32,000 nt of DNA, taken from assembly GCF_000020385.1 (NCBI RefSeq), contig NC_010814.1, positions 1,290,001-1,322,000 of the forward strand. Direction: 5' to 3'. Origin of the DNA: Trichlorobacter lovleyi SZ. GTDB taxonomy: Bacteria > Desulfobacterota > Desulfuromonadia > Geobacterales > Pseudopelobacteraceae. Below are positions 5,116 through 28,599 of this stretch, one piece after another. Each line of letters begins with the position of its first letter. Position 1 is the stretch's first letter. The translations under genes were made by a program, and so were the position numbers. The notes beneath the pieces were generated by a model that saw only the letters and a program-made list of their open reading frames with translations, was not told the DNA's origin and searched no databases.

Positions 5116-5583
5116 ATGGAAAAGGCAACCTTTGCAGCAGGCTGTTTCTGGGGTGTTGAAGAGGCGTTTTACGATGAAGCGGGTGTTGTTGCCACCAGGG
5201 TGGGCTATACCGGCGGCACGCTTGAGAATCCGACCTACCAGCAGGTATGCAGCGGTACCAGCGGTCATGCCGAGGCGGTTGAGGTGAGTTTCGATCCTGC
5301 CAAAATCAGTTATGACCGGCTGCTGAAGATCTTCTGGCAGGCCCACGATCCAACCCAGCTGAACCGGCAGGGGCCGGATGTCGGTAGTCAGTACCGTTCA
5401 GCCATTTTCTACCATTCGGAAGAACAACGCCTTCAGGCTGAATCATCCCGTGAGGCTGTCGATCATTCCGGTCGCTATCAACGTTCAGTTGTCACCGAGG
5501 TTGTACCGGCAGGTACCTTTTGGCAGGCTGAAGAGTATCACCAGCAGTATCACCGGAAAAACGGCGGAGGCTGCGGTTTTTAG
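5116..5583 (+). CDS. msrA: Peptide-methionine (S)-S-oxide reductase MsrA
   Basis: GCFWGVEE catalytic motif, then [22 protein letters not shown] and YHQQY. The ATG at 5116 lies 5 nt after GGAGG. The upstream ATG at 5104 is possible. Confidence 0.9.
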
Positions 5584-6119
5584 TGCGTGTCCTTGGAATC
5601 GACCCAGGTTCACGCATCACCGGTTACGGTTTGGTGGAACAGCATGGTAGCCGCCTTGTGCACCTTGACAACGGAGCCGTCTTTACCGATAAGGCGAAGG
5701 ATTTTCCTGATCGTCTGCGTCTGATCTTTGAAGGGCTGAGCAGGGTCATTGCAGAATACGCACCCGATGCGGTGGCGGTTGAGGATGTCTATGTCTCTGA
5801 AAACGTCCGTGCGGCCCTGAAGCTGGGACAGGCCCGGGGCGCTGCCATCGCTGCAGCGGTTCACGCCGGGCTGCCGGTTTTTGAGTACACGGCCTCACAG
5901 GTGAAGCAGGCGGTGGTGGGGCAGGGCAGGGCAGGTAAGGAGCAGGTCCAGAAGATGGTTAAAGCACTTTTAGGCCTGCCTGAGATTGCCCAGGCTGATG
6001 CATCCGATGCCGTTGCCGTTGCAATCTGTCATATCAATTCATATCAGTTGCGTCTGCAGGCCGGCCCTGCGGTGGCAACATCCCGTCGTGCCAGTTCCTG
6101 GAGGAACTACCGTCCATGA
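5583..6119 (+). CDS. ruvC: Crossover junction endodeoxyribonuclease RuvC
   Basis: (GTG)[16 protein letters not shown] and [11 protein letters not shown] motifs. The GTG start overlaps the msrA stop codon. Confidence 0.92.
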
Positions 6120-6718
6120 TTGCTCTTTTAACCGGTCAGATAGCCCACAAGTCACCGGACCATGTCATCCTTGATGTTCACGGGGTCGGCTACCGGGTCA
6201 TGATCCCTTTCTCCACCTACTATGAGCTGCCTGAAGAGGGGCAGGCCACCCTGCATATCCACACCAGTGTGCGGGAGGATGCCATCCTGCTTTACGGCTT
6301 TCGTACCCGCACGGAAAAGTCTTTTTTCCAGTTGCTGATCTCGGTCTCCGGCATCGGTCCCAAGCTGGCTCGGGACATCCTTTCAAATATCCAGCCACCT
6401 CAGCTGGCTGCTGCCTTGCAACAGGGTGATCTGCACAAACTGTCCGCCATTCCCGGCATCGGCAAGAAGACTGCTGAACGTCTGGTGCTGGAGTTGAAGG
6501 ACAAGGCAGGCAAGCTGGATAGCGGCAGCATCCCGGCGGGTGACGCGGTGGGACGGTCACTGCCTGCAGGCAGTGTCCTGGACGATGTTTCTTCTGCGCT
6601 GGTAAATTTGGGGTACAAGGATCCGCAGGTCAGGAAGGTGCTGGCCGAGCTTGATTGTGCAGGATCGGCTTCTGTTGAAGAGGTTCTGAAACAGGCGTTG
6701 AAGATTCTGATGAAATAG
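6116..6718 (+). CDS. ruvA: Holliday junction branch migration complex subunit RuvA
   Basis: [21 protein letters not shown], a helix-hairpin-helix region ([19 protein letters not shown]) and a C-terminal domain III. ATGA overlap with ruvC. Confidence 0.92.
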
Positions 6719-6848
6719 TTCCCGGTATCATTTCAAGGAGCAATCTACGGCGGTTCGTCTCCGGCCGCTCAGCGTACTGCCACAGTATTCCGGTGTTGCC
6801 GAATTCCTTGAGATCCTGCTGTCTATACTGAACCGGAATCAAAACAAA

Positions 6849-6874
6849 ACGGAGAGGCATACCTGCCTCTCCGT
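6849..6874. terminator. Bidirectional intrinsic terminator between convergent ruvA and the 6908-7744 gene
   Basis: ACGGAGAGGCA-TACC-TGCCTCTCCGT stem-loop flanked by A-runs and T-runs on both sides. Confidence 0.65.
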
Positions 6875-6907
6875 TTTGTGCGTAATACTGACTGCAGCCG
6901 ATGACAG

Positions 6908-7744
6908 CTACTCCAGCAGCATTGCGTTGACCCGGGCCCTGACCTTCATTCCCTCCTTAACGGAAGCGCCGCCTTTTTCAAAATAGCGGCCTGAGATACT
7001 GCCATCCTCAATCTGCAATTCCCCCAGGCTGGCCAGCACCTGATTGTTGTCATCAATTACTTCAATGGCCTGCTGTTTTTTGGGTACCTTGCGCAGTTTT
7101 GAGGTGTTGATCTGCACGTAGGCGATCCTGCCGTTAATCCGGCTGACACTGCCTATCTCGTAGCTGGGATTGAAGCCCATGCCCAGACGGTCTGCAGCAG
7201 CCCTGAAGCCAATGGTGACGGCGCGTTTGAAGAACTCCTGCTTCTTCTCGGCCACCATGACCTCACGCTTGGGAATCTTGCTTTCCAGCTTGCGGTCATC
7301 GCTGTACGACTTGACCAGTTCAATCTGTCCCTTGGCATTCATCAGCTTGACATCAAGTCTGACCCGGGCCTTGAAGGTAACCAGCTTGCGGGTCGGGTCC
7401 ATATTCATGGGAGACTCAAAGGAGTTGAGGCTCTCGATCCGTGGTTCAATGATGTAGGTCTCCTGATCGGAGGCGTTCATCAGCACCTTGGTGAAACGCT
7501 TGGTATTGGCCAGCTGGGCCTGGATGTCGTTCATCAGTTCGTCGGTCATCTCAGGCGGGAGTTGATGGGTAAACTTTGCACCAAGATCCTGTCTCAGGCC
7601 GATTGCATCAAGGTTAACCGGTTCCAGAGCCTGGGTCGTTACCTGCTGCGCCTCAGTAACATAGACAGTCTGGGGGGCCGTCGCACAACCAAAGGCAAGC
7701 AGGCTGAGCAGGCAGAACCCCGTATAACGTAGATAGCGATTCAT
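6908..7744 (-). CDS. Lipoprotein, last gene of the envelope cluster. Weak resemblance to the TolB-N/CsgG/FlgT-middle module plus a C-terminal small beta domain.
   Basis: AAGGAG RBS and a lipobox (LLAFGC|A). The motif MTDELMNDIQAQLANTKRFTKVL resembles the helix-strand signature of the CsgG/LpoB/FlgT_M fold. Family assignment is by eye only. Confidence 0.7.
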   Translation of the reverse strand: MNRYLRYTGFCLLSLLAFGCATAPQTVYVTEAQQVTTQALEPVNLDAIGLRQDLGAKFTHQLPPEMTDELMNDIQAQLANTKRFTKVLMNASDQETYIIEPRIESLNSFESPMNMDPTRKLVTFKARVRLDVKLMNAKGQIELVKSYSDDRKLESKIPKREVMVAEKKQEFFKRAVTIGFRAAADRLGMGFNPSYEIGSVSRINGRIAYVQINTSKLRKVPKKQQAIEVIDDNNQVLASLGELQIEDGSISGRYFEKGGASVKEGMKVRARVNAMLLE

Positions 7745-7777
7745 GGCATACTCCTTGATTGAAAGTTCTCCGGCCCC

Positions 7778-9049
7778 CTACTGTAGGCGGTCGAGGGCTG
7801 CCAGTTGGGTCATGTCGTCCGAAGCCGGGAACATGGCCGCAATCAACTCCATTTTCTTAGCTTCCTGATCACTGAACTCAACCTGCTCTCCGGCAAAAGC
7901 CAGCATCAGCTTTGGTTCCAGCTGCTGCATCGCCGCCTCTGCCAGTTCAATCCTGCGCAGGGCCTCTTTGGTTTTCTGTTCTGCAGCCGGGTCATCGTCC
8001 TTGATCTGGTACTTGCCTTTGATCTGCTGGTACATGGTCTTGTAGACCGTGTACTGCAGTCCCAGATTGTCCTTGTAGATGCCGAGCGAGCCCAGCACCA
8101 TCTTGATCCGGGGGAAGAGCATGGCTGCGTTGTAGACGCCGCGTATCCTACTGAATTCCTTGTTGATGTTGGGGAAGGCGCGGATGCCGTTCACCACGGC
8201 GCAACCGATCTTCACCATTGAAGCCATGGTAAAGTCAGCACCTGCCACGGAAGCAGAGTAGACCTTGTTGGCCAGCTTGCCGTAGTTTTTCTCCATGGTG
8301 GCCATATCTTCTGTTTTTTCCTTCAACGCAGCCGTTATGGCATCATCTTTCAGGCTGGGATCTTTACAGGCAGCCTTTTTGACCTCTTCGCCCACTTCAG
8401 CGCTTGCTTTACGCAGGAATGCATCACACTGGGTATAGCCTCGTGCATTTAAGGCAATTTCTGCCTCCAGCTGAAGCATCTCTTTCTTGTTGTTGGTGAC
8501 GACTGCATAGGCCATCAGGGGGTTGCGATAGACGTATTCGTTGACAGTATCCGGCAGTTTGCGGGGACCAAGCTCCCGGAAATAGACGTCCTGGGTCTGG
8601 TTCTTGAAGAAGGCGACATCCCCCTTATCCACATGCTTGTCCAGCAGCTTTTCTCTGTCTTTCAGAAAAATGTAGAGGGCGCTGGTGGGGCGTGGCCAGC
8701 CGGTGGCCGGGTCAATCTCGGTGGCCAGGGTGATTCCCTGGGATGAGGCAAAGGCGGAGAGCCCCATCTTGAACAGGGCGCCCCCGGAGGGGACGCCGTA
8801 GAGATCCTTGGGCCAGGTATCCTGTTCAGACAGGGGGGACTGCAACAGGACCCGGTTGGAAAGCTTGATTGAGATGGCTGCTGATTCAAAGGAGTCCAGG
8901 GCGGCCATGACGGTCGGGTTCATGGATTCTGCCCCGCATTCAATGGCAGACATGCCGGTGGCACAGCCGGACAGGTTGCCGGTCGCAAGCGCCAGCAGAC
9001 CGGACAGAACCAGGTATTTCAGATAACGCAGATGTGACGATAGCTTCAT
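7778..9049 (-). CDS. Lipoprotein of unknown family (423 aa)
   Basis: GAGGAGGG RBS and a signal peptide with lipobox (NLSGC|A). Mixed, largely helical-looking sequence. I recognise no motif. Confidence 0.7.
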   Translation of the reverse strand: MKLSSHLRYLKYLVLSGLLALATGNLSGCATGMSAIECGAESMNPTVMAALDSFESAAISIKLSNRVLLQSPLSEQDTWPKDLYGVPSGGALFKMGLSAFASSQGITLATEIDPATGWPRPTSALYIFLKDREKLLDKHVDKGDVAFFKNQTQDVYFRELGPRKLPDTVNEYVYRNPLMAYAVVTNNKKEMLQLEAEIALNARGYTQCDAFLRKASAEVGEEVKKAACKDPSLKDDAITAALKEKTEDMATMEKNYGKLANKVYSASVAGADFTMASMVKIGCAVVNGIRAFPNINKEFSRIRGVYNAAMLFPRIKMVLGSLGIYKDNLGLQYTVYKTMYQQIKGKYQIKDDDPAAEQKTKEALRRIELAEAAMQQLEPKLMLAFAGEQVEFSDQEAKKMELIAAMFPASDDMTQLAALDRLQ

Positions 9050-9085
9050 AAAACAGCACCCTCCTCAATTAAGGTTGATTCATTC

Positions 9086-10210
9086 CTATTTGAAAACCAC
9101 CTTGTTGCCCTGAATTTCAGGATTCCAGCGTTTCAGTTGCGCGTCTTTTTCAAAGTTGTCCATCAACAGGTCAACCAGATCACTGATCTTACCGGCGTAG
9201 TAGAGGTCAACCACCATGTCGCCTTTGCCGCGGTTCTTCTGACTGACATTCTTCAATCCCTTGATGTCCTCACCGAGCAGTTTGAGCAGTTTCCGCTCCA
9301 GGCGGTACTCGCCCCGTGTCGGCAGTACCAGTTCGAAACGGGCACCACGGCGTTCCTGGGTCAGGGTCTTGGTGTTAAGGGCATTAACAACCTCACTGGC
9401 AAACTTCTTGCCGCCGGCAATGGCAGCCAGGCGAATGGCAGCCTTGGCTTCATCCTTGGAGGCACGGGCAGCACCATCCGGGTTGCCTTCCCACATCAGG
9501 TCGCGGCTGGCCAGGCTGACGGTCTTGCCGGTCATCATGGCGCGGTAGACATAGGCCGAACCGCTGGGAGCAACACTGACATCCACCTTGCCCAGCACCA
9601 GCCACTCGCCTTTATCTGCCAGCTGGTCAGCAATCTTGTTGATATGCTTGACCATCTTGTTGTAGTCAGCCTCCTCGGTCAGTGCCTGGTTGACTGCTTC
9701 GTCATCGGAGTCAATCACGGTGTACTCGGCAGCGGTCAGGCTGCGGCGGACCTCGGCCCGGACGTTGTCAAGAATCATCGGGGCATCACCGGTATCCATC
9801 TTGCCGGGGATGATCATGACCACGATCCGGCGCTCTTCATTTTTGCCGGTAACCGCACCCTGGCGCTTCAGGTAGGCCCGTACCGCTTCTTCGTTGATGG
9901 TGATCCTGATCTTGGCTTTCAGCTCTTTGGAAAACATCCCTTCAACGCTGCTCTCAAGGATTTCAAGATCTTTGATGTATTTTTCGTCGCCGGTCAGGTT
10001 GAGGGTGGCGGCCCTGTCCGGATAGACATCACGCAGGTAGTGCTCAAGCGCCTGTTCACGACCGCGCTGTTCGGCCTTTTTACGAGCCGTGTATTCGTCG
10101 TCATCCACCTTGACGGTGACAATTTCGGTATAGGTGCGTACTTCGGCAGCAGCCAGAAGCGGCAGCAACACCAGTCCCAATGTGATCATGATCAGCAGAA
10201 TGCGTTTCAT
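9086..10210 (-). CDS. Exported protein, a divergent relative of the three tandem paralogs (LPP20/FlgT-N-like N-terminal module plus TolB-N-like middle module)
   Basis: AAGGAGG RBS and a signal peptide (LLPLLAAAEV). N-terminal ARKKAEQRGREQALEHYLR, and middle RRIVVMIIPG..VRAEVRRSLTAAEYTVIDSDD. Length and layout are similar to the neighbouring paralogs. Confidence 0.7.
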   Translation of the reverse strand: MKRILLIMITLGLVLLPLLAAAEVRTYTEIVTVKVDDDEYTARKKAEQRGREQALEHYLRDVYPDRAATLNLTGDEKYIKDLEILESSVEGMFSKELKAKIRITINEEAVRAYLKRQGAVTGKNEERRIVVMIIPGKMDTGDAPMILDNVRAEVRRSLTAAEYTVIDSDDEAVNQALTEEADYNKMVKHINKIADQLADKGEWLVLGKVDVSVAPSGSAYVYRAMMTGKTVSLASRDLMWEGNPDGAARASKDEAKAAIRLAAIAGGKKFASEVVNALNTKTLTQERRGARFELVLPTRGEYRLERKLLKLLGEDIKGLKNVSQKNRGKGDMVVDLYYAGKISDLVDLLMDNFEKDAQLKRWNPEIQGNKVVFK

Positions 10211-10245
10211 TGGTAAAGCCTCCTTCTCGAAAAGTTAAGAGAATA

Positions 10246-11376
10246 CTATTGACGCTTCCAGGTGCTGCGGGCACCTTCGGAGCGGATCAGTTTTAACGTC
10301 CAGCCCAGTTGCTTACCGGTCTTGTTGATGGCGCTCTTGACGGCATCAGCGCTGCTGCCGGACTTTATTTCAAAGGTGGTTTTGCCGCCGCCAGACTCCC
10401 GCTCACGGATGTTTTCCATGCCGGGAACCGTCTTCAGGGCCTCCTTAAAGCTGGACACATCGTCAATCTCGGCCACACCATCCAGAACAATAATAAAGGT
10501 GCCGGCGCCGGATTTCTCCCGTTTCCAGCTCTTCTTGATGGAGTCGATCATCACGTTTGAGATCTTGTGGCCCACATCTTTGGCAGAGCGGTAGAGTGCC
10601 TCCTGCAGGGTGCCGGCATGGGAGGATGATTCAACATCCTTGCTGGCAACCACCCGCGAGGTGCTGGGGTTGATCAGCTGGGCACGCAGGAATATTTTTG
10701 CTGCTCCGCCGGTGTACTGCCAGTAACCTTCTCGGCCGATGCCGACCGTCTGGTAGTACAGCACCAGATCGGCATGGTATTTCAGGCCGTAAAGCGCCGC
10801 CTTGTTGGTGTCCAGCTCCATCTCATGGGTTTCGGCTACCTGAACGGAAAATTTCTGGGCCGAGGCCTTGTCGATTACGTCAAAACCTTTGTCAGTCAGC
10901 ACTTCAACAATCGCCCCGTAGGAGTTGTCGAAGAACGCTTCCAGATCGGCACGGGTGCTGCCCAGTGTGGCTCCCTGGGGCAGGTTGGGGTTATAGAGCA
11001 CCATGATGCGGGGATTGCCCATGGCGTCCTGCATCAATCCCAAGGCGTTGATCTCATTTTCCAGGCTCTTCAGGTTTACTTCGGCAGTCACCTGCAGCTC
11101 GTAACCGGCCCCGGTGAATTCAGGCTCCCCTTTTTGGACAAGCCGGGCCAGTTTCCTGGTCTTGCCTTTCAGGGCAGAGGCGATCTTCTGTTTGTTCTTC
11201 TTGACGGTTTCTTCGTCAAGGATCTGCTTGACTGCCATATCAATGGCATTGTTCAGGCCGCTTGCAACCGCTGCATCTTCAGACATGCCGCGACCGGTTG
11301 CCGTAAACTGATCAGCGAGCGCAAAGCTGCAGAGGGCAAGCAGAAGCGTTACGGCAAGTATGATGATCCGTTTCAT
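10246..11376 (-). CDS. Exported FlgT/LPP20-like protein, tandem paralog 3
   Basis: Signal peptide MKRIIILAVTLLLALCSFALA. Conserved core LTDKGFDVIDKASAQKFSVQVAETHEMELDTNKAALYGLKYHAD. C-terminal ESGGGKTTFE...GWTLKLIRSEGARSTWKRQ. Confidence 0.8.
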   Translation of the reverse strand: MKRIIILAVTLLLALCSFALADQFTATGRGMSEDAAVASGLNNAIDMAVKQILDEETVKKNKQKIASALKGKTRKLARLVQKGEPEFTGAGYELQVTAEVNLKSLENEINALGLMQDAMGNPRIMVLYNPNLPQGATLGSTRADLEAFFDNSYGAIVEVLTDKGFDVIDKASAQKFSVQVAETHEMELDTNKAALYGLKYHADLVLYYQTVGIGREGYWQYTGGAAKIFLRAQLINPSTSRVVASKDVESSSHAGTLQEALYRSAKDVGHKISNVMIDSIKKSWKREKSGAGTFIIVLDGVAEIDDVSSFKEALKTVPGMENIRERESGGGKTTFEIKSGSSADAVKSAINKTGKQLGWTLKLIRSEGARSTWKRQ

Positions 11377-11385
11377 GATTTCCCC

Positions 11386-12495
11386 CTACTGTTTCTTCCA
11401 GGTACTTCTGGCACCTTCGGCACGGATCTTCTTCATGGTCCAGCCCAGTTCCTTGGCAACGCGGATCACATCACGGTCAAGCTGGTCACGCTTGCCTTTG
11501 TAGGTGGCTTCAAAGGTAGTCTTGCCGCCGCCGGACTCAACCTCTTTGGCACCGGTTGCCAGCGGAAATTTTTCAAACATTTCGGTGAACCTTGCAATCT
11601 GTTCCGGGTCATCTACACCGTCAATGATGATGGTGTACATGGCGCCGTTCTGCTGCATATCCATCCAGTGCTTTTGCAGTACATCAATCATCGGGTTGAC
11701 AATCTTCTTGCCACCTTCGCGGGCTGCCTTTTCAAGGGCCTGCTCAACGGTCTGTCCCATGCCGGCCTGTTCGACTTTCTTGCTGGTAATGACCTGGGAA
11801 CGGGTGTTGTCGATCAGTTGTGTCTTGACGTTTACCAGAACGCTCTTGCCGATGGCCCCTTCACGGACTACGCCGCTGACGTTGTAAAACAGGGTGTATT
11901 CGGCGTGGAACTTGAGGCCGTAGGCGGCTGCCTTGTTCAGGTCCACATCGATCTCGTGGGTCTCTGCCTGTTGCATGGAGAATTTTTCAGCAGAGGCCTT
12001 GTCCACAACACGGAACTGCTTGTCGGTCAGGGATTCTACAATACCGTTATAGATCTCCTCGGTGAACTCCTTGTCCTTGAAGATCTTGTCCTTGGACTTG
12101 TTGCTGAAGGCCACCAGGATGCGGGGATTGCCCACTACGGCGTTTTTGCGCAGGATGGTCAGGGCGTCAATGTCACCCTTGATCAGCTTGTTGTCAACCG
12201 TGGCAGAGATGGTGATGTTGACGCCGTCAGCGGTTTTTTCTTCTTTGATGATTTTGTAGCTGGTGACATAGCCCTTGCTGTGAGAAAGGATCTTGTCATC
12301 TATCAGTGCTGAATCGATAACGGTGGTGTCTGATTTGATAAAGGTGCCAACCCCTTGCTCTACAGCCCGGCGCATGGCCGTAGCCAGGGCCACTTCCTTG
12401 CTGGGACCTTCACCGGTGGCTGTTACGGCTGCAGCGAAGGCTGCCGTTGCACTGAGGAGCATTACCCCGACAACCAGTAGCAAAATTCGTCTCAT
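11386..12495 (-). CDS. Exported FlgT/LPP20-like protein, tandem paralog 2
   Basis: AGGAGGAAG RBS and signal peptide MRRILLLVVGVMLLSATAAFA. Core LTDKQFRVVDKASAEKFSMQQAETHEIDVDLNKAAAYGLKFHAE. C-terminal ESGGGKTTFE...GWTMKKIRAEGARSTWKKQ. Confidence 0.8.
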   Translation of the reverse strand: MRRILLLVVGVMLLSATAAFAAAVTATGEGPSKEVALATAMRRAVEQGVGTFIKSDTTVIDSALIDDKILSHSKGYVTSYKIIKEEKTADGVNITISATVDNKLIKGDIDALTILRKNAVVGNPRILVAFSNKSKDKIFKDKEFTEEIYNGIVESLTDKQFRVVDKASAEKFSMQQAETHEIDVDLNKAAAYGLKFHAEYTLFYNVSGVVREGAIGKSVLVNVKTQLIDNTRSQVITSKKVEQAGMGQTVEQALEKAAREGGKKIVNPMIDVLQKHWMDMQQNGAMYTIIIDGVDDPEQIARFTEMFEKFPLATGAKEVESGGGKTTFEATYKGKRDQLDRDVIRVAKELGWTMKKIRAEGARSTWKKQ

Positions 12496-12507
12496 GTTTT
12501 CTTCCTC

Positions 12508-13326
12508 CTATCTGATTTTCCATGTGCTGCGGTTACCTTCTGATCTGATCTTCTGCAGCTGTATCCCCTGCTGGGAGGCCAGTCTGAGCAGCTCTCGTTC
12601 AAGCTGGTCGCGCCGTGATTTACAGATGATTTCCAGCGTGGCTTTGCCACCGCCGGCCTCGACCTCCTTGACGGCAGCGACAGCCTTGTTTTTTTCCAAC
12701 AGGGACACCAGTCGTTCGGTCTGGGCCTCCCGGCCTTCAAAGACCATGGTGACGGTGCGGCCTTCATTGCCGTTCTGGGTAATATGCTGCTCCAGGCCTT
12801 TGGACAGTTGTTCGGTCAGCTTTTTGCCCGCGTTTCTGGCTGCCTTTTCAATGGCATCTTCAGTGCTGTGCCCACTTGATGATGCCTCAGCCTGTTTGGC
12901 CGAGATAATCCGTGCACCTGTGTTGTCAATGATCTTGGCACTGACTTTGACCAGAGCACCAATCCCTTTGTCCGGGTCTTTGACAATAGTAGATGTCTTG
13001 AAATGGATGGAATATTCGGCCAGAAAGGTAAGGCCATAGGAAGCAGCTTTGTTCAGGACAGGGTCAATCTCATGGGTGGCAGCAATCTGCATGGCCGCTT
13101 TTTCTGCGGCCGCACGGTCTACCACCCGGTAGCCCCGGTCAGTCAGGTATTCTACCATGCTGTCATAGACACCTGCTTGGGCTGCCAGTTCCTTCTCGGA
13201 TGCGCTGCCGCCAACGGCGCGAATCAAGAGCAGACGCTCACCGTCAGCAGGCTTTTGAGCAGCTAGGGCGGCTGCCGAGGCAAGCATGAGAGCAAGACAG
13301 CTGAGGATTAATAGGATAAAACGCAC
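12508..13326 (-). CDS. Exported paralog 1, a shorter form lacking the N-terminal LPP20-like module
   Basis: The GTG at 13324-13326 gives (M)RFILLILSCLALMLASAAALAA, matching the paralog signal peptides. Core LTDRGYRVVDRAAAEKAAMQIAATHEIDPVLNKAASYGLTFLAE. C-terminal EAGGGKATLE...IQLQKIRSEGNRSTWKIR. The track ORF extends to 13383. Confidence 0.75.
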   Translation of the reverse strand: MRFILLILSCLALMLASAAALAAQKPADGERLLLIRAVGGSASEKELAAQAGVYDSMVEYLTDRGYRVVDRAAAEKAAMQIAATHEIDPVLNKAASYGLTFLAEYSIHFKTSTIVKDPDKGIGALVKVSAKIIDNTGARIISAKQAEASSSGHSTEDAIEKAARNAGKKLTEQLSKGLEQHITQNGNEGRTVTMVFEGREAQTERLVSLLEKNKAVAAVKEVEAGGGKATLEIICKSRRDQLERELLRLASQQGIQLQKIRSEGNRSTWKIR

Positions 13327-13389
13327 TGGCTTAGTCCTTTGGCTTGGGGAATAGAGCGTCAGCATACCAGAAAAAAACGACACCGCAAG

Positions 13390-14298
13390 TTACCAGTCGT
13401 CTGAAGAACCGCCACCGTCAAAGTCTCCGCCACCTCCGGAAAAGCTATCGTCACTGGACGATGAGCCACCGCCTCCGCCACCATAGAAGATGGTCGGCCC
13501 TCCCCAACCACCACCGTAGGATCCGCCGCCACCACCACCGGCATGAAAGAGCCGCATCAGGAGACTGATCAGAAATCCGGCTGCAGCGCCCAAAAGTGCC
13601 AGTACTCCCAGCTTCCAGAGTACCGCTCCCAGGCCGATACCTGCGGCAGCCGGCAGACTCACACCACCTGCCAGAATACCGGCAGTGCGGGAGGATGAGC
13701 CGGCAACAGCAGTTATGACGATGGCCGCCAGCAGCAGGATAATGAAGAGGCCGTAGCCGCTGCCCTTTTTCTTTTTGGCCGCTTTCTTGTCAGCTGCTGT
13801 GGCCTTGAACTCCCCCTTGGTGGCACCGATAATTGCACCGAGACCGGCACTGATCCCCTGGTCTATGTTGCCGGCCCGCAGTTCCGGCGCGATCACATTG
13901 CGGATAATCTGGCCGGCGGTGATGTCCGGCAGGACCCCCTGCAGTCCGGTGCCGACCTCGATTCTGATCTTACGCTCCTTCTTGGCAAGAATCAGGATCA
14001 CCCCGTTGCTTTTGTCTTTCTGTCCAATTTTCCAGGCCTCGGCCACCCGGATGGCGTAGCTTTCGATGACGTCACCTTCAAGGGACGGAATCGTCAGCAA
14101 CACCACCTGATTGGTGGTTTCGTTTTCAAAGGCAGCCAGTTTTTGTTCCAGTGACCGGGCGGTTGCAGGAGAGAGCATCCCGGCATAATCATTGATTCTG
14201 CCCTTTAACGGCGGAGCTTCAAGCGCTGAAACATGCTGTGCCGGACAGACGAACGTTATGATGAACAGCAGAAGCAGTTTGAAGGCATTAAAACGCAT
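13390..14298 (-). CDS. TPM domain-containing protein (YgcG-like) with a TM segment and Gly-rich acidic tail
   Basis: Signal peptide, then RINDYAGMLSP..LEQKL..FE..T..QVVLLTIPSLEG..IESYA..V...W.IGQK..NGVILILAK.ERK.RIEVG.GL.G.L.D, the classic TPM/YgcG pattern. Hydrophobic stretch, then a GGGGGG...GGGSSDDW tail. Confidence 0.88.
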   Translation of the reverse strand: MRFNAFKLLLLFIITFVCPAQHVSALEAPPLKGRINDYAGMLSPATARSLEQKLAAFENETTNQVVLLTIPSLEGDVIESYAIRVAEAWKIGQKDKSNGVILILAKKERKIRIEVGTGLQGVLPDITAGQIIRNVIAPELRAGNIDQGISAGLGAIIGATKGEFKATAADKKAAKKKKGSGYGLFIILLLAAIVITAVAGSSSRTAGILAGGVSLPAAAGIGLGAVLWKLGVLALLGAAAGFLISLLMRLFHAGGGGGGSYGGGWGGPTIFYGGGGGGSSSSDDSFSGGGGDFDGGGSSDDW

Positions 14299-14319
14299 GC
14301 TGGCCTCGTGGGACTCCGG

Positions 14320-14904
14320 TTAGAATTTGACCTTGGGGGCCGTTTTGGCACCTTCCTCAGCCTTGAAAGGTTCTTTGCGTTTCAGGTGAAGCAAGAGTGA
14401 GTTGGTCATGCTGTTTGGAAATGTTCTGATACTGGTGTTGAAGGTCTGCACCGTCTTGTTGTAACGCTCCCGTGCCACGTTGATCCGGTTTTCAGTCCCC
14501 TCCAGCTGCTTCTGCAGATCAAGAAAATTCTGGTTGGCTTTCAAGTCAGGATATTTTTCTGCAACCACCATCAGCCGGGAAAGGGCGGATGACAGCTCCC
14601 CCTGATTCTGCTGGAATCTGGTCAGGGCCGCGGGATCATTGATAACCTCTTTGCTGAGCTGCATACTACCCACTTTTGCCCGTGCCTCGGTGACAGCTTT
14701 GAGGGTGTCTGCCTCATGCTTGGCATAGCCCTTGACCACCTCTACCAGGTTGGGAATCAGGTCGTTGCGCCGTTGGTAGGATGATTCAACATTGCCCCAG
14801 GCCGCGATGACCGCCTCCTCGTTGGCCTGCATGGTGTTGTAGCCGCAGCCGGACAGTGTTGAGAGTAATAACAGCCCAAGCATACTGAGTAACAGGTGTC
14901 TCAT
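14320..14904 (-). CDS. lemA: LemA family protein
   Basis: The start at 14902-14904 has a GGAGG RBS. Sequence MRHLLLSMLGLLLLSTLSGCGYNTMQ..EEAV.AAWGNVESSYQRRNDLIPNLVEVVKGYAKHE..TL..VTEARA is typical of LemA. The track ORF to 15216 is an artefactual extension that overlaps the SemiSWEET gene in another frame. Confidence 0.9.
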   Translation of the reverse strand: MRHLLLSMLGLLLLSTLSGCGYNTMQANEEAVIAAWGNVESSYQRRNDLIPNLVEVVKGYAKHEADTLKAVTEARAKVGSMQLSKEVINDPAALTRFQQNQGELSSALSRLMVVAEKYPDLKANQNFLDLQKQLEGTENRINVARERYNKTVQTFNTSIRTFPNSMTNSLLLHLKRKEPFKAEEGAKTAPKVKF

Positions 14905-15188
14905 ACAGGTGCCTCCTCGTCTTGTTCTGGGTCGTTGCCTTTGAATCTGACCTTCATGGCCGTTAACAACAGGTTGCAAATCAGTGGCGTGATGTTGGCA
15001 AGGATCAAGGGCGTATCGCCGATCAGCATACCGTAGATTAACCACAATGCAACCCCGGCGGACAAAAGAAGTGGTTGCCAGATGGAAAGATCCCGCGCAT
15101 GGCGGCTGCGCCAGGTCTTGATAACCTGCGGCAGTGCTGCGACACTGGTAAGCAGTCCGGCGATCAGGCCGATCAGGGTGGGAGTCAT
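14901..15188 (-). CDS. SemiSWEET (PQ-loop/MtN3-type) three-helix transporter
   Basis: 95 aa with three TM helices. LPQVIKTWRSRHARDLS and LWLIYGMLIGDTPLILAN closely match bacterial SemiSWEETs. There are 4-nt ATGA overlaps with both neighbours. Confidence 0.85.
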   Translation of the reverse strand: MTPTLIGLIAGLLTSVAALPQVIKTWRSRHARDLSIWQPLLLSAGVALWLIYGMLIGDTPLILANITPLICNLLLTAMKVRFKGNDPEQDEEAPV

Positions 15189-15922
15189 GTCGTTTTTTTC
15201 CGGTCGTTGAAGTCACCGGCTGCCCAGTCTATCTGGGACAGCATGCCACGCAGAATAGCAACTTCGCGGCTGTCAAGCCCGGACCTGAAAAATATGCGGC
15301 GTAGCGAACGCATGATGTGACCGGGATTTTGGGGGTTCAAATGCCCAATGCGCAGCAGGGTCTGCTCCATGTGGGTGAACAGCGGTTCAAGTTCTCCGGA
15401 TGGTGCCGGTGTCCGTCGCAGAGAGCCGGTCTCGGCGGTGGCAGCACCGAACAGCTCATAGCAGAAAATCAGGGCTGCCTGGGCGAGGTTGAGGGAACCG
15501 TACTCGGAACTCGACGGTATGGTCGCCTGCAGTGTGCAGAGGGAGAGGTCTGCCGTGGAAAGTCCGTGGTCTTCACGTCCGAAGACCAGCGCTGCAGAAC
15601 CTGGCGCTTGTAACAGTGCCTGGGCCGCTTGGGGGGGGCTGAGCAGTTCCTGGCGGTATTTGCCGCTGCGCCGTGTGGTTGCCACTGAGACGCTGATATC
15701 TGCCAGGGCGTCTGCCAGACTGTCGAACAGTTCTGCCTGCTCCAGCAAATCTCTAGCTGAGACCGCAAATTTAAATGCCTCGGGGTGGAGGTGGTCGCAG
15801 CCGGCCACCAGGCGCAGGCGTGAAAGCCCCATGTTTTTCATGGCACGGCAGACCATGCCGATATTGCCCGGAAACTGGGGTTCAACAAGGATGACGGAAA
15901 GACCGGTAAGGGATGGCGGCAT
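15185..15922 (-). CDS. trmJ: SpoU/TrmH-class RNA 2'-O-methyltransferase, TrmJ-like
   Basis: ILVEPQFPGNIGMVCRAMKNMGL, ALVFGREDHGLS and SLNLAQAALIFCYEL match the TrmJ/LasT group of SPOUT methyltransferases. Confidence 0.8.
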   Translation of the reverse strand: MPPSLTGLSVILVEPQFPGNIGMVCRAMKNMGLSRLRLVAGCDHLHPEAFKFAVSARDLLEQAELFDSLADALADISVSVATTRRSGKYRQELLSPPQAAQALLQAPGSAALVFGREDHGLSTADLSLCTLQATIPSSSEYGSLNLAQAALIFCYELFGAATAETGSLRRTPAPSGELEPLFTHMEQTLLRIGHLNPQNPGHIMRSLRRIFFRSGLDSREVAILRGMLSQIDWAAGDFNDRKKTT

Positions 15923-15927
15923 GGTGG

Positions 15928-16929
15928 CTAGACGGACAGACGTCCGGCAACTTCGGAGCGCATCAGATCAATCATCTCTTCAGTTTTTGCTTCCGGGTCA
16001 ATGTCAGGGGCCTGGGCAGACAGAGCAGCCAGAAAGGCAATCAGTTTCTGGCTGTCGAGCAGCGCGGTCTTGCCGCCCACAAGGTCGAGCAGCTCGTCTA
16101 CCAGATCTGCCCCCTGACGTCCAAGGTAGGCTTTGGCAATTTCCTGCAGGTCGTCGACAATCTCGGCCAATTGGGCCTCATTAGCGCTGTGCGGCTCTTC
16201 TGTTGTCTCGTCCGGCTCCGGCGAGATCGGGGGGGCGACAGGCGGAGTTGCTGCCGGAGCAGGTCTGGTCTGACTGGCGGTGTGGCGACTGTACGATGCC
16301 TGCCAGAGACGCTCTATGTTGAGGGTTTCAAGGAAGTTGTGGTGCAGCAGCTCTTCAGCTGGTAGTGTGCTGCGTACTTCAAGCATGGCACCGGGCAGGG
16401 CGGCGATCCGTTGCGATTCAGCAGGAGAGTTTTCAATTTCCTGTGCTGCATCGTGATAGAAGCCGATCGGTGTTCCCTCTTTGTAAAATATCATGGCGCT
16501 GCGATCCGGCGTGGAGAATAGCATGGTGCCGTTCAGTGCCTGGCTCTTCATGCGGGCCAGGACGGCCTTGAGGTCAAGGTTGCTGACCGGTTCTGGTTTG
16601 AATACCACGTCGCCATGCAATAGCGCATGGGTGCAGACCGCCAGATCAACGGTCATCCGGTAGACGTTGATAACGCCGCCTTCGGCAAGGGCGTGACTGA
16701 ACAGGCTGGTGACGGCCTCAAAGCCGCTTTTACGAGTATTCCCTTCCAGTACAAGTGTGCTGATCAAGGCACCTTTGATGAAGACAAGGTACGCTTCCGA
16801 GCTGTTTGAACCATAGCCCAGATAGCCGGTGAAACCGCCCGTCCCCATTTTTTTCATGGCTTCGGGCAGATTGATTTTTTGAACCGGGATGTTTTCGTAT
16901 AAGGGATTGGAGCGCGGCAGGATCAGCAT
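15928..16929 (-). CDS. Cytoplasmic protein of unrecognised family (paralog P1), with a two-repeat N-terminal region, a Pro-rich linker and a helical C-terminal extension
   Basis: Start chosen at 16927-16929 (MLILPRSNPLYENI) by homology with the N-terminus of the 19111-19788 product (MLRLPKGTPLFENL). Shared blocks are FTGY, NVYR, CxHALLxG and DRSAMIFYKEGxPxGFxHD. Faint resemblance to PATAN/DUF4388-type repeats, unverified. Confidence 0.7.
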   Translation of the reverse strand: MLILPRSNPLYENIPVQKINLPEAMKKMGTGGFTGYLGYGSNSSEAYLVFIKGALISTLVLEGNTRKSGFEAVTSLFSHALAEGGVINVYRMTVDLAVCTHALLHGDVVFKPEPVSNLDLKAVLARMKSQALNGTMLFSTPDRSAMIFYKEGTPIGFYHDAAQEIENSPAESQRIAALPGAMLEVRSTLPAEELLHHNFLETLNIERLWQASYSRHTASQTRPAPAATPPVAPPISPEPDETTEEPHSANEAQLAEIVDDLQEIAKAYLGRQGADLVDELLDLVGGKTALLDSQKLIAFLAALSAQAPDIDPEAKTEEMIDLMRSEVAGRLSV

Positions 16930-17058
16930 GGTACTTTCTCGCTTCAAGGTAATGTGATACTTCAGCCATCTATACCTACTGTATTTGCCGGGCTCTGTCA
17001 AAGGATTATCAGACGCTGGCGTATAGTGTAACTCTATGTAAAATTAGAGATATACGGC

Positions 17059-23463: not shown

Positions 23464-24672
23464 ATGAAACGAATCTGGTTGTTCCTGGTGTTGACACTGG
23501 TTGTGCTGGCAGGGGGCTGCGCCAAACAGGTTGCCCGTTGTACGGCACCGGAAGACAATCCGGCACATCATTATCTGCGTGGAATGGAGGCGCTTGAGGC
23601 CGGTAAAGTTGACTTGGCCCAGGATAAGTTTGATCGGGCGCTCTATTGTGAGGAAAACTTTTCAGCGGCCTATGGCGGCAAGGCCATTGTGGCAGCCCTG
23701 AAGGCCAAAGGGATGAATGATGCCAGCTATCGTGGCGTAGAGGTGGCCCGTGCCGAGGAATACCTTGAGAAAGCCCTGAAGCTTGCAGAAAGCGACAATG
23801 ACCGTTTTGAGTACCAGCTGGCTGTACTGAGGGCGGCATCTGCAGTAAAGGGGAAAGACTGGCTGGACCGGGCTGAAGCAGCCTACCGTGCTGTCCAGTC
23901 CATCGAGAAGCTTGATGAGCGGCGGCTTGACTACTATCAGGGCAAGGAGGCCGCTGCCTATTTCATGGGACTGGCCTATCTGGAAGGATATCAGTTCCGC
24001 AAGGCAGAGGATAAGTTCCGCGAGACCCTGGACAGCCGTAAAATGGGCAAGTGGAATGAACCAGCCGACAAGGCCTGGAAAAAGACTGCCAAGATTGTGC
24101 GGGCCATGGGTGGAATAACCGTTGGCGATGTTGGCCGCAAGGTTGCGGTAAAGGAAGCGGTATCCCGTGGCGATCTGGCTGCCCTGCTGGTGGATGAGAT
24201 GAAGATCGACAAACTGTTTGCCGGACGGATCCCGGTCAAATCGCAACTGGATGCCATGAAGGCCGAATTTACACCGGCAGATTTGCTGTCCCATCCGTTC
24301 CGTGATGAAGTCAATACCATCATGAAATGGAAGGTGCGCGGCCTTGAACCCAAGTTCGACCAGACCACCAAGGCCTATCTTTTTAAGCCGGAAGACAAGG
24401 TGATGCGGGGTGAGATGGCCTTTATTCTTGAAGATGTGTTGATCAAGCTGACCGGCGATGAAAAACTGGCCACCGCCTATTTCGGTCAGGAACGTTCCCC
24501 CTTCCCGGATGTCAAGGCGACCTCTCCCTTCTACAACGCCGTCATGAACATGACCAGCCGCGGGATTATGGAAGGCGAGCTGTCCGGCGAGTTCCGCTTT
24601 AACGAGCCGGTTGACGGCGCCGAGGCGATTCTTGCCATCCGGATGCTGCAGCAAAAAATCAATATCTATTAG
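23464..24672 (+). CDS. Lipoprotein with an N-terminal TPR-like helical region and C-terminal SLH-like repeats
   Basis: Lipobox LAGGC|A. The C-terminal FPDVKATSPFYNAVMNMTSRGIMEGELSGEFRFNEPVDGAEAILAIRML resembles an S-layer-homology repeat, as does the preceding FTPADLLSHPFRDEVNTIMKW...VMRGEMAFILEDVL. Assignment by eye. Confidence 0.7.
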   Translation: MKRIWLFLVLTLVVLAGGCAKQVARCTAPEDNPAHHYLRGMEALEAGKVDLAQDKFDRALYCEENFSAAYGGKAIVAALKAKGMNDASYRGVEVARAEEYLEKALKLAESDNDRFEYQLAVLRAASAVKGKDWLDRAEAAYRAVQSIEKLDERRLDYYQGKEAAAYFMGLAYLEGYQFRKAEDKFRETLDSRKMGKWNEPADKAWKKTAKIVRAMGGITVGDVGRKVAVKEAVSRGDLAALLVDEMKIDKLFAGRIPVKSQLDAMKAEFTPADLLSHPFRDEVNTIMKWKVRGLEPKFDQTTKAYLFKPEDKVMRGEMAFILEDVLIKLTGDEKLATAYFGQERSPFPDVKATSPFYNAVMNMTSRGIMEGELSGEFRFNEPVDGAEAILAIRMLQQKINIY

Positions 24673-25691: not shown

Positions 25692-25805
25692 ATTAGTTGC
25701 AAACAAATAGCAGTGCCGTACAAGTACAAAATGGAGTCTAGTAATCTGAGCAGGTCTGGATAACAGTGCAGTTTGCTCGTTTGAAAGCTGCAGGAGGTCG
25801 TGGAA

Positions 25806-28498: not shown

Positions 28499-28567
28499 CT
28501 TCTGTTGCCCACGTGTCACCTGATGGTTCCTGTTCCAGATCTGCAGAGAATGTAATGCAGATTTTCG

Positions 28568-28595
28568 GGAACTTTTTGCTGCAGGAGATGTCTGA
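28568..28595 (+). promoter_or_regulatory. ECF (sigmaE-type) promoter, probably autoregulatory
   Basis: GGAACTT (28568-28574), a 16-nt spacer, then TCTGA (28591-28595). The extended motif GGGAACTTTTT.CTG....TGTCT.A recurs at 30203-30232. Confidence 0.6.
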
Positions 28596-28599
28596 TGAT

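Follow-up and report, generated by a model that had tools for sequence, protein, structure and literature searches.

Do eight successive minus-strand genes of Trichlorobacter lovleyi SZ, among them genes for a LemA protein, a TPM protein and a run of FlgT-like proteins, encode a single non-flagellar scaffold of the cell envelope? An initial annotation had proposed this for a 32,000 nt stretch of the genome (GCF_000020385.1, NC_010814.1:1,290,001-1,322,000, forward strand), the whole of which we analysed and call the window here. Open reading frames were found at the coordinates claimed for all eight genes, which are labeled G1 (LemA), G2 (TPM) and G3-G8 onward in minus-strand gene order, and the features of the region are as follows (positions are those of the window):

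15185-15922, minus strand: SpoU-type methylase gene (Pfam SpoU_methylase, 1.1e-28), with a 4-nt overlap with the PQ-loop gene
14901-15188, minus strand: PQ-loop/SemiSWEET-like gene (Pfam PQ-loop, 6.8e-9), with a 4-nt overlap with the lemA start
14320-14904, minus strand: G1, LemA-family lipoprotein, 194 aa (Pfam PF04011, E 1.7e-58; lipobox LSGC at residues 17-20)
13390-14298, minus strand: G2, TPM-domain protein, 302 aa (Pfam PF04536 TPM_phosphatase, E 5.1e-41, residues 35-157)
12508-13326, minus strand: G3, short paralog in the FlgT/LipL46 family, 272 aa, with a GTG start and consisting of the middle and C-terminal modules
11386-12495, minus strand: G4, periplasmic protein of three modules in the FlgT/LipL46 family, 369 aa (homologs, AF2, Foldseek, hhalign)
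10246-11376, minus strand: G5, full-length G4 paralog, 376 aa (BLASTP), lineage-variable
9086-10210, minus strand: G6, divergent three-module family member, 374 aa (hhalign), part of the core
7778-9049, minus strand: G7, orphan lipoprotein of 423 aa with lipobox LSGC (profile search, AF2)
6908-7744, minus strand: G8, lipoprotein of 278 aa with lipobox FGC and no family assignment in Pfam or NCBIfam
6844-6879, minus strand: intrinsic-terminator-like hairpin with a 16-bp stem, directly past G8 and between the convergent G8 and ruvA

The layout is operon-like, with short gaps and a single minus-strand terminator past G8, but several of its details differ from those first reported. The intergenic spacing, given as 6-35 nt, comes out from the same coordinates as 21, 63, 12, 9, 35, 36 and 33 nt; strong ribosome-binding sites, ascribed to every gene, are present on six of them, and those of TPM (ACGAGG) and G3 (AAAGGA, with its GTG start) are weaker; and the hairpin, which is the sole terminator-like minus-strand site within 6500-15500 and had been called bidirectional, has a good T-run for the minus strand but only GTTTTGT for the plus strand. 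The string does not start at lemA either, as the overlapping PQ-loop gene makes plain. The SpoU methylase and PQ-loop genes, whose synteny is kept in related loci, are probably in the same transcription unit as G1-G8, and we do not count them as members of the envelope system. The 32-kb window contains no flagellar, curli or PBP genes, in agreement with the initial annotation, and beta-barrel, pel, csg and lpt genes, riboswitches and defence systems were likewise not found in it.

The identities proposed for the first two proteins are secure, since G1 and G2 are clear Pfam members of the LemA family (PF04011, to which MamQ belongs) and of the TPM proteins (PF04536; TLP18.3/Psb32/MOLO-1), respectively. 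G1 reaches only 92.6 bits against the NCBIfam MamQ model, whose cut-off is 250; its orthologs are 85-98% identical, and it differs from the LemA family in being a lipoprotein. Judged by its sequence, G2 would carry a signal peptide, place its TPM domain in the periplasm and also contain a hydrophobic segment and a tail rich in Gly. To our knowledge neither family has an established bacterial mechanism outside magnetosomes and photosystem repair. TPM and G3-G6 carry SPase-I-type signals, and LemA, G7 and G8 carry lipoboxes; the Sec or lipoprotein signals claimed for the downstream products are thus present and are also kept in orthologs, and we propose that all proteins of the gene set act outside the cytoplasm.

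G3, G4 and G5 are the three tandem paralogs they were said to be: by BLASTP G4 and G5 are 36% identical over their full length (E 1.9e-80), G3 and G4 are 44% identical over 220 aa (E 2.5e-62), and G3 and G5 are 32% identical. G3, whose start was set by comparison with orthologs, lacks an N-terminal module of ~150 aa. The divergent fourth relative, G6, was placed in the family by hhalign, with a probability of 89% against the G4 profile and of 99.5% against a broad family profile (E 5e-23, 331 columns), to which G4 itself aligns with a probability of 100% (E 1e-71). The G4 family comprises 7,646 clusters at 50% identity, and its best matches are mostly 365-410 aa long and aligned over most of the profile. 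The Pfam LpoB score of G4 is 19.6 bits, below the 22.3 cut-off, and some G4 orthologs bear precomputed PF13036 matches; distant family members lie at or near the FlgT_N cut-off, and one of them has a CsgG score above the Pfam cut-off, yet no single stretch of it is significant. Pfam FlgT_M and FlgT_C match no protein of the gene set, and FlgT was not found by sequence even with the broad family profile.

Are these proteins nonetheless related to FlgT in fold? The AF2 models of G4 (pLDDT 72.5) and G7, built from shallow alignments, are moderately confident (pLDDT ~72). The top PDB matches of the G4 model in Foldseek are 8z5n and 3w1e (E 4e-10 and 9e-9, ~385 columns), although its TM-scores to FlgT are only ~0.29; we take the 8z5n chain, from the Vibrio LPHT ring, to be FlgT. 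Together with the distant members near the FlgT_N cut-off, these matches uphold the description of G3-G6 as FlgT-like. The next matches, all to the G4 middle domain, are GNA1162, PelC and CsgG (both of which form rings) and LptE, and the family profile also reaches XCC0632 by sequence (E 0.0097). The N module is predicted to have the element order beta-alpha-beta-beta-alpha, and through this module the family profile matches a lipoprotein chain of 171 aa, most likely FlgP, in 9HMF, a model of the flagellar scaffold of C. jejuni (E 1.9e-6); the C-terminal domain is also modelled as beta-alpha-beta-beta-alpha. We read G4 and G6 as each built of an SHS2-like N module (FlgP/Lpp20/FlgT-N), a PelC/CsgG/LptE/GNA1162-type middle module and a small alpha/beta C domain. 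In the FlgP family a beta-hairpin insert correlates with ring formation (PMC12222027); this insert is not seen in the G4 model, in which residues 62-76 form two short helices where it would sit.

The lipoprotein G7 is an orphan, as first described, and is clade-restricted: its profile search gave only 144 relatives, none of which (0/144) has a Pfam domain. Its model is a long bundle of helices capped by a small hairpin (pLDDT 72.9, pTM 0.71), two of its cysteines (C208 and C228) are invariant, and its model has no fold match (best E 0.48 in the PDB and 0.24 in BFVD). The "similar middle module" and FlgT-C-like domain attributed to G8 were not recovered, as its hhalign probabilities against the two FlgT-like family profiles are 3% and 9%; the G8 profile has no match among PDB sequences at E<=1, and Pfam gives only LptE (E 0.028) in 2 of 17 G8 orthologs. 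No similarity of G7 or G8 to FlgO, FlgP or other known proteins was found.

Comparison of gene neighbourhoods across 46 related loci (43 of them assessable for LemA-TPM) separates a core from a variable remainder. G4 is the hub gene, found in all related loci, and the co-conserved core is G4-G6-G7-G8. G6, better conserved than any other FlgT-like gene here (ortholog identity is 92-97% inside Trichlorobacter and 50% for Syntrophales-type loci), occurs together with both G7 and G8 in 28 loci, and the latter two are never found apart. The core is also present in the Syntrophales-type loci L044 and L046, at 30-57% identity; in each of the two there is a 4-nt overlap of G7 with G8, and in L044 the flanks differ but the order G4-G6-G7-G8 is unchanged. 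G5 is missing from L017, L020, L034, L039, L044 and L046, the presence of G3 differs among related loci, and both genes are lineage-specific duplicates of G4, with the N terminus truncated in G3. LemA-TPM lies upstream of the G4-type set in 29 of the 43 assessable loci and is absent in the other 14, L044 among them; it is also missing around three distant G4-family members, and it adjoins FlgT-like genes only in Geobacterales and not in every case there. The link is therefore facultative, and LemA-TPM and the FlgT-like set do not form an obligate unit; neighbourhood conservation holds for the core, Syntrophales included, but not throughout for LemA-TPM, G3 and G5. The slot from SpoU/PQ-loop to ruvA is syntenic across Geobacterales and its contents vary: some related loci have other accessory sets in place of G6-G8, and in some relatives a DUF1425 (YcfL-type) gene adjoins the G4 ortholog. 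Most of the co-conservation is confined to one order and one syntenic chromosomal slot and is therefore partly due to vertical inheritance. No flagellar genes were seen in the inspected flanks of related or distant loci.

The explanation that we favour, tentatively, is that G4, G6, G7 and G8 form an uncharacterised, non-flagellar, hetero-oligomeric scaffold in the periplasm that is tethered to the outer membrane. The Sec-exported, three-module G4 and G6 would physically assemble with the lipoproteins G7 and G8, which would supply the tether, and the complex might adopt a ring geometry; its organisation would be like that of the Vibrio H-ring, in which periplasmic FlgT is found with the outer-membrane lipoproteins FlgO and FlgP, but outside any flagellum. 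In Vibrio, FlgT forms a C26 ring that adjoins the outer-membrane-lipidated FlgP and FlgO rings (PMC13521929). LemA, a lipoprotein, and the TPM protein, which is anchored in the membrane, would be a neighbouring module, often linked to G4 and separable from it, and we treat the pair as accessory or independent, not integral. Our literature search found no paper on such a system. Of the initial proposal, the FlgT-like family, the non-flagellar context and the lack of a description in the literature searched are supported; a scaffold or ring function is an analogy, and the tie to LemA-TPM is loose.

It is unlikely, in our estimation, that these proteins instead assist or regulate some other machine of the envelope, such as a peptidoglycan synthase or a channel that exports polysaccharide or protein, in the manner of PelC, CsgG, LptE or LpoB, with no self-standing scaffold. 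The middle-domain fold matches, the weak LpoB and precomputed PF13036 matches and the DUF1425 neighbour point this way (LpoB and YcfL are linked in E. coli gene order), as does a distant member placed between LPP20, TPR/SLH, CsgG and FecR genes; but the window has no beta-barrel, pel, csg, lpt or PBP genes, the LpoB score is under the cut-off, and G3-G6 have SPase-I signals, unlike the lipid-anchored PelC, CsgG, LptE and LpoB. We give similarly little credence to the absence of any joint system, by which separately acting outer-membrane or surface proteins (LipL46-like adhesins, structural lipoproteins) would have been co-inherited in one slot beside an unrelated LemA-TPM pair. The variable content of the syntenic slot, the facultative LemA-TPM, the variable G3 and G5, the alternative accessory sets, the translational coupling of the string to a housekeeping methylase gene and the study of LipL46 as an adhesin are consistent with this, whereas the unchanged core order between different flanks in another bacterial order (L044) and the inseparable, in L044 and L046 overlapping, G7 and G8 argue against it; divergent paralogs also appear to have been retained in tandem, which is typical for hetero-oligomeric assemblies. 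Finally, it is very improbable that G4, G6 and the two lipoproteins are Geobacterales H-ring or basal-disk equivalents acting in trans on a flagellar motor encoded elsewhere, since, although FlgT chains are the best structural matches of G4, its N module has a homolog among the lipoproteins of the C. jejuni flagellar scaffold and a FlgT-like protein with two lipoproteins parallels FlgT, FlgO and FlgP, neither the window nor the inspected flanks have flagellar genes, FlgT_M, FlgT_C and the broad profile fail to connect the set with FlgT, the C domain in the G4 model is of the alpha/beta type, most of the broad SHS2/Lpp20 family is non-flagellar (PMC12222027), and studies of LipL46, a named homolog, have treated it as a lipoprotein of the outer membrane and an adhesin.

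How does the proposed scaffold compare with known systems? With the SHS2-like FlgP/Lpp20/FlgT-N family (IPR024952) G4 shares the 9HMF match and the N-module element order, but G4 is a larger protein in which two further modules accompany this one. The G4 middle domain resembles the PelC/CsgG/LptE/GNA1162 (DUF799)/XCC0632 fold (E 2.5e-7 to 1e-4; target-normalised TM up to ~0.6-0.68), several members of which assemble as rings or plugs on the inner side of the outer membrane; sequence similarity is marginal, however, G3-G6 have no lipid anchor, and no partner barrel or secretion genes are in the cluster. The Calditrichia MAG locus L049 (LPP20 - TPR/SLH - FlgT_N protein - CsgG - FecR) also sets a distant G4-family member among envelope lipoprotein genes; its partner genes are others, without LemA, TPM, G7 or G8, but its flanks as shown are likewise free of flagellar genes and its cluster is likewise uncharacterised. 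Leptospira LipL46 (NCBIfam NF033164), studied as an outer-membrane lipoprotein and an adhesin and antigen of a pathogen, is the only named family matched consistently by the wider G4 family (29 of the 32 distant members, the best at E 5e-22). G4 itself matches it at E 1e-6, but its 27.7 bits fall short of the equivalog cut-off, which is 400, and it is therefore a distant homolog and no LipL46 proper. Unlike G3-G6, which have SPase-I signals, LipL46 is a lipoprotein, and it too is an envelope protein without a known molecular mechanism. From FlgT of the Vibrio H-ring (3W1E, 8Z5N) the locus differs in the low TM-score, the unmatched FlgT_M and FlgT_C, the beta-alpha-beta-beta-alpha C domain, its four paralogs instead of one, the lack of flagellar genes nearby and lipoproteins unrelated to FlgO and FlgP. 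Yet FlgT, the top structural match of G4, is also Sec-exported, periplasmic, of similar size and three-module, and its partners are two outer-membrane lipoproteins, just as two lipoprotein genes follow here.

The eight minus-strand genes of the initial annotation (here G1 to G8) were all recovered by an ORF scan. They lie, with the genes upstream and the terminator-like site downstream, as follows:

15928-17001, minus strand: 357-aa ORF (orf357), 5 nt upstream of the SpoU gene
15185-15922, minus strand: SpoU-type methylase gene, 4-nt overlap with the PQ-loop gene
14901-15188, minus strand: PQ-loop/SemiSWEET-like gene, 4-nt overlap with the lemA start
14320-14904, minus strand: G1, LemA
13390-14298, minus strand: G2, TPM protein
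12508-13326, minus strand: G3, FlgT-like, GTG start
11386-12495, minus strand: G4, FlgT-like
10246-11376, minus strand: G5, FlgT-like
9086-10210, minus strand: G6, FlgT-like
7778-9049, minus strand: G7, lipoprotein
6908-7744, minus strand: G8, lipoprotein
6844-6879, minus strand: terminator-like 16-bp hairpin directly after G8, the sole minus-strand terminator-like site in 6500-15500

The features of a single operon are all present: the genes are co-directional, the gaps from G1 to G8 are short (21, 63, 12, 9, 35, 36 and 33 nt), and there is no internal terminator and one at the end. Each gene had been credited with a strong ribosome binding site, which is true of six of them (GGAGG-type), those of the TPM gene and G3 being weaker; the terminator had been called bidirectional, and the hairpin has a good T-run on the minus strand and a weak one toward the convergent ruvA. 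Because the PQ-loop and SpoU genes show 4-nt overlaps, the transcription unit probably starts farther upstream than lemA, and the co-directional string therefore comprises at least 10 genes, a housekeeping-type methylase included. A promoter scan gave matches at chance level, and an Rfam scan of the whole window found one tRNA and no riboswitch or regulatory RNA.

The SpoU-PQ-loop-lemA gene order is kept in many related loci. The 357-aa ORF upstream of it has no Pfam family, and in most Geobacterales loci a second copy, 37-42% identical, lies beyond the divergent TPR gene. Long antisense ORFs that could mislead gene callers run opposite G6 (9137-10216, plus strand, 359 aa), G5/G4 (10774-12312, plus strand, 512 aa) and G4/G3 (12293-13039, plus strand, 248 aa); given the conserved orthologs of the genes on the minus strand, these are almost certainly not real genes. 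The window also encodes TatC, RNase R, YebC, MsrA, RuvC, RuvA, a TPR protein, malic enzyme-PTA, a ROK kinase, a 402-aa protein with a C-terminal S-layer-homology (SLH) domain (23464-24672, plus strand) and, after the latter, a copper-resistance set (multicopper oxidase, CopB) with an ECF sigma factor (25800-29199, plus strand). A reading of the window as a defence system was rejected, PADLOC having given only a match of LemA to PDC-S06 (E 0.0033, 14 bits).

The eight products all lie outside the cytoplasm, either exported or anchored to a membrane. When they were compared with Pfam and NCBIfam, LemA and TPM alone scored above the cut-offs, and both assignments agree with those made initially. 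G1 belongs to the LemA family (PF04011, E 1.7e-58, 197.1 bits against a cut-off of 26.2) and its lipobox, LSGC, is conserved; with 92.6 bits against a cut-off of 250 it is no MamQ equivalog. G2 carries a TPM domain (PF04536, E 5e-41, 140 bits against 22.1) between its signal peptide and a hydrophobic segment with a Gly-rich tail, and it is not a Psb32 equivalog (46.5 bits, cut-off 160).

G3, G4 and G5 are true paralogs, as had been proposed: G4 aligns with G5 at 36% over the full length (E 2e-80) and with G3, which lacks the N-terminal ~150 residues, at 44% over 220 aa. BLAST did not connect G6 to these three. Its description as a divergent fourth relative is nevertheless borne out by profile-profile alignment, in which the G6 ortholog profile was collinear with the G4 profile (prob 89%, E 2e-6) and matched the profile of the wider FlgT/LipL46-type three-module family around G4 (A6) over 331 columns (prob 99.5%, E 5e-23). 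Four of the eight products fall in one FlgT/LipL46-type family. All four have SPase-I-type signals and no lipobox. The family is large: with sequences clustered at 50% identity, an exhaustive profile search gave 7,646 clusters at E<=1e-3, of which 2,143 reach E<=1e-10. The top matches are mostly 365-410 aa long and aligned across most of the profile. No Pfam model covers the G4-type family and the matches are partial only; 17 orthologs of G6 run under Pfam gave no consistent family, and one distant member had a CsgG score above the cut-off yet no single significant stretch. The N module of the A6 profile (positions 35-118) matched residues 82-164 of 9hmf_C, a 171-aa lipoprotein in a model of the C. 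jejuni flagellar periplasmic scaffold (E 1.9e-6; E 0.0068 with the A1 profile), and from its length and description this chain is most probably FlgP.

Two stretches are invariant in the G4 alignment and also occur in G3 and G5: an ESGGGKTTFE hairpin (G4 residues 318-329) and a C-terminal tail, R-x-E-G-x-R-S-T-W-K (residues 358-366), in place of which G6 and the distant members have a GN-containing tail. The G4 tail, modelled at very low confidence, might form the final strand of the C domain or else act as a docking peptide.

The AF2 model of G4 (pLDDT 72.5) is built of three modules: residues 24-117 form the N module, 125-283 the middle module and 285-349 a beta-alpha-beta-beta-alpha C domain; this model and that of G7 were built from shallow alignments (12 and 17 sequences) and are of moderate confidence. 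The best PDB matches of the G4 model by Foldseek were a Vibrio LPHT-ring chain (8z5n, E 4.3e-10) and FlgT (3w1e, E 9.3e-9), both with prob 1.00 and over 381-387 columns, so that the model resembles solved FlgT overall, at TM values of only 0.28-0.30. The next matches, GNA1162, CT253, PelC, CsgG, XCC0632 and LptE, were to the middle domain. They would suit a protein that assists some other envelope machine in the manner of LpoB, PelC or LptE, and the window, as first reported, holds no flagellar, curli or PBP genes; we consider such a role unlikely. G4 itself was rejected as LpoB (PF13036, 19.6 bits against 22.3, E 9e-4), there being no lipobox and no PBP gene in the window, and G3-G6 were rejected as CsgG/PelC proteins, there being a match of the middle-domain fold alone, no lipobox and no csgE/F/A/B or pelA-G genes.

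The two lipoproteins stand apart from the FlgT-like proteins, to whose profiles neither the G7 nor the G8 profile is related in profile-profile comparison. G7 belongs to a small family (144 matches, none with a Pfam domain) and has invariant Cys208 and Cys228; AF2 models it as a long bundle of helices that carries a small hairpin head (pLDDT 72.9, pTM 0.71). Foldseek of this model against the PDB and BFVD gave no significant fold match, and ClyA, XaxA and Smh-type alpha-pore-forming toxins (prob <0.15) are a lead at most. G8 has no family in Pfam or NCBIfam, and 17 orthologs run under Pfam gave no consistent one; the middle-module and FlgT-C-like domains that had been seen in it find no support at the sequence level. 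PDB sequence-profile searches with G7 and G8 returned nothing meaningful. Many relatives of G7 are 510-556 aa long, against ~420 aa (L014 13472-15097, L019 13429-15015, L034 10227-11825 and L020 2439-4277, all related loci in other genomes; P0333-P0383), and in tblastn they align as two separate blocks, a pattern that suggests that ~100 residues have been inserted midway through the helical-bundle protein.

Are these genes kept together in other genomes? A scan of a genome collection with two G4 peptide patterns, which bias the set toward close relatives, gave 46 loci to which all eight proteins were mapped. The loci come from Trichlorobacter, Geobacteraceae and Desulfuromonadaceae MAGs and a few Syntrophales-type MAGs, the closest being that of T. 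thiogenes (G4 94% identical). G4 is present in all 46, and G6, G7 and G8 occur together in 28, G7 and G8 never apart; the presence of G3 and G5 varies. G4-G6-G7-G8 is a co-conserved core. Two Syntrophales-type loci, L044 and L046, retain it at 30-57% identity with a 4-nt overlap of G7 and G8, and in L044 the flanks are unrelated (an amidase upstream, AMP-ligases downstream) and LemA and TPM are missing. In Geobacterales the cluster occupies one syntenic slot, from orf357-SpoU-PQ-loop to the convergent ruvA-ruvC-msrA-yebC, so that vertical inheritance accounts for part of the co-conservation. That the products act independently of one another, as surface or outer-membrane proteins, would be compatible with this shared slot and sits less easily with the core kept in L044; we regard it as doubtful.

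LemA and/or TPM lie upstream in 29 of the 43 assessable loci and are missing in 14, counts that depend on contig ends, and in L011, L012, L014 and L020 G3 or G4 directly follows the PQ-loop gene. LemA-TPM is a frequent but dispensable neighbour of the FlgT-like set, and it might be an inner-membrane partner of a scaffold in some lineages, a link not described in the literature found.

G4 also occurs with other partners. In six loci (L025, L038, L040-L042 and L047) a 517-524-aa member of the same family follows G4 and replaces G6-G8; in the two that were examined, a 134-137-aa protein, DUF1425 (YcfL-type) in L040, precedes this member and unassigned proteins of ~680 and ~225 aa follow it:

L040 11141-15952: G4 ortholog with the alternative accessory set
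L025 11137-15919: G4 ortholog with the alternative accessory set

A third accessory set, after three FlgT-like genes (L023 12312-17287), consists of a 367-aa protein without a family, a 1,150-aa NHL/beta-propeller and Ig-like protein and a 125-aa protein. Three distant members, drawn from at least 17 proteins that match the distant-family profile, stand in non-flagellar contexts with no LemA or TPM nearby: in a Calditrichia MAG (L049) the order is LPP20, TPR/SLH protein, FlgT_N protein, CsgG and FecR, in a deltaproteobacterial MAG the member adjoins FecR, and in a Delongbacteria MAG it adjoins FapA. The parallel between the TPR/SLH gene in L049 and the SLH gene in the window may be coincidence.

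Two loci are disturbed. In L001 (~5500-8830; Trichlorobacter ammonificans) inovirus-like Zot and DUF2523 genes lie directly upstream of the G3 ortholog, with Phage_CI_repr farther upstream, in the place that SpoU-PQ-loop-LemA-TPM occupies elsewhere; a filamentous prophage may have integrated at this end of the cluster. In L039 (10019-11042 and upstream) the G4 ortholog appears to be split into two adjacent blocks, which could reflect a frameshift, decay or a MAG assembly error, and no TPM was detected between LemA and G4.

We tentatively favour the reading, on a balance that falls a little short of even, that the core proteins would together build a scaffold in the periplasm with a tether to the outer membrane. 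The analogy draws on proteins of the PelC/CsgG fold, which tend to form rings, and on the Vibrio H-ring, in which periplasmic FlgT is a C26 ring beside outer-membrane-lipidated FlgP and FlgO rings (PMC13521929). In the FlgP family, ring formation correlates with a beta-hairpin insert (PMC12222027). No such insert is predicted in the G4 model, which has two short helices there (62-68 and 70-76, pLDDT 52-61); this weakens the idea of a ring, as does the fact that G7 and G8 resemble nothing known. A more specific proposal is unlikely to hold: G4 and G6 (with G3 and G5) and the lipoproteins G7 and G8 might make up a ring or lattice that underlies the outer membrane in Geobacterales and Syntrophales and has no part in a flagellum. 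It would be a structure not seen before, a counterpart of the flagellar H-ring or basal disk that stands on its own. A flagellar accessory acting in trans is very unlikely: it would accord with the FlgT likeness of the G4 model, and neither flgO, flgP, motX, motY, flgH or flgI in the 32-kb window nor any flagellar gene in the inspected flanks of related or distant loci was found. As far as sequence can tell, nothing points to an unexpected mechanism.

If a scaffold of this kind exists, FlgT/FlgP-type assemblies would be a general module of envelope architecture, borrowed or lent by flagella, and not a flagellar speciality; if the proteins act independently, they are merely another set of hypothetical envelope proteins. 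In spite of the size of the FlgT/LipL46-type family, practically no function is assigned to its members apart from that in the Vibrio flagellar H-ring. Here two to four paralogs and two dedicated lipoproteins are conserved in a cluster that is not flagellar. Such a cluster is a tractable entry point, because cultured T. thiogenes carries it (L004), and a good candidate for experiment: it could help show the envelope role of these proteins and whether flagellar periplasmic rings came from a general scaffold. Literature searches on LemA with TPM, FlgT-like proteins and LPP20/CsgG found no paper on such a cluster.

The resemblance to FlgT is not new, public annotation labelling some relatives "FlgT N-terminal domain". 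FlgT_N (PF16548) had no match at E<=1 in G3-G6, and some orthologs carry precomputed matches to it; with the cut-off at 28.8 bits, two of 10 distant members passed it, at 30.3 and 33.2 bits, and five stayed just under. Pfam FlgT_M and FlgT_C were found neither in G3-G8 nor in these 10. G3-G6 were rejected as FlgT proper, having no FlgT_M or FlgT_C, a different C domain, no flagellar context and no FlgT sequence match. G4 was likewise rejected as a LipL46 equivalog (27.7 bits against a cut-off of 400, E 1e-6; SPase-I signals in G3-G6). At the superfamily level homology with LipL46 is supported, its model (NF033164, NCBIfam) being matched by 29 of 32 distant family members (best E 5e-22), and the cluster could suggest a structural role for this Leptospira protein. 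The 9hmf_C match places the N module by sequence homology with the FlgP/Lpp20 SHS2-like family, and G3-G6 belong to a wider superfamily, as yet without a name, in which N modules of the FlgT-N/FlgP/Lpp20 type occur.
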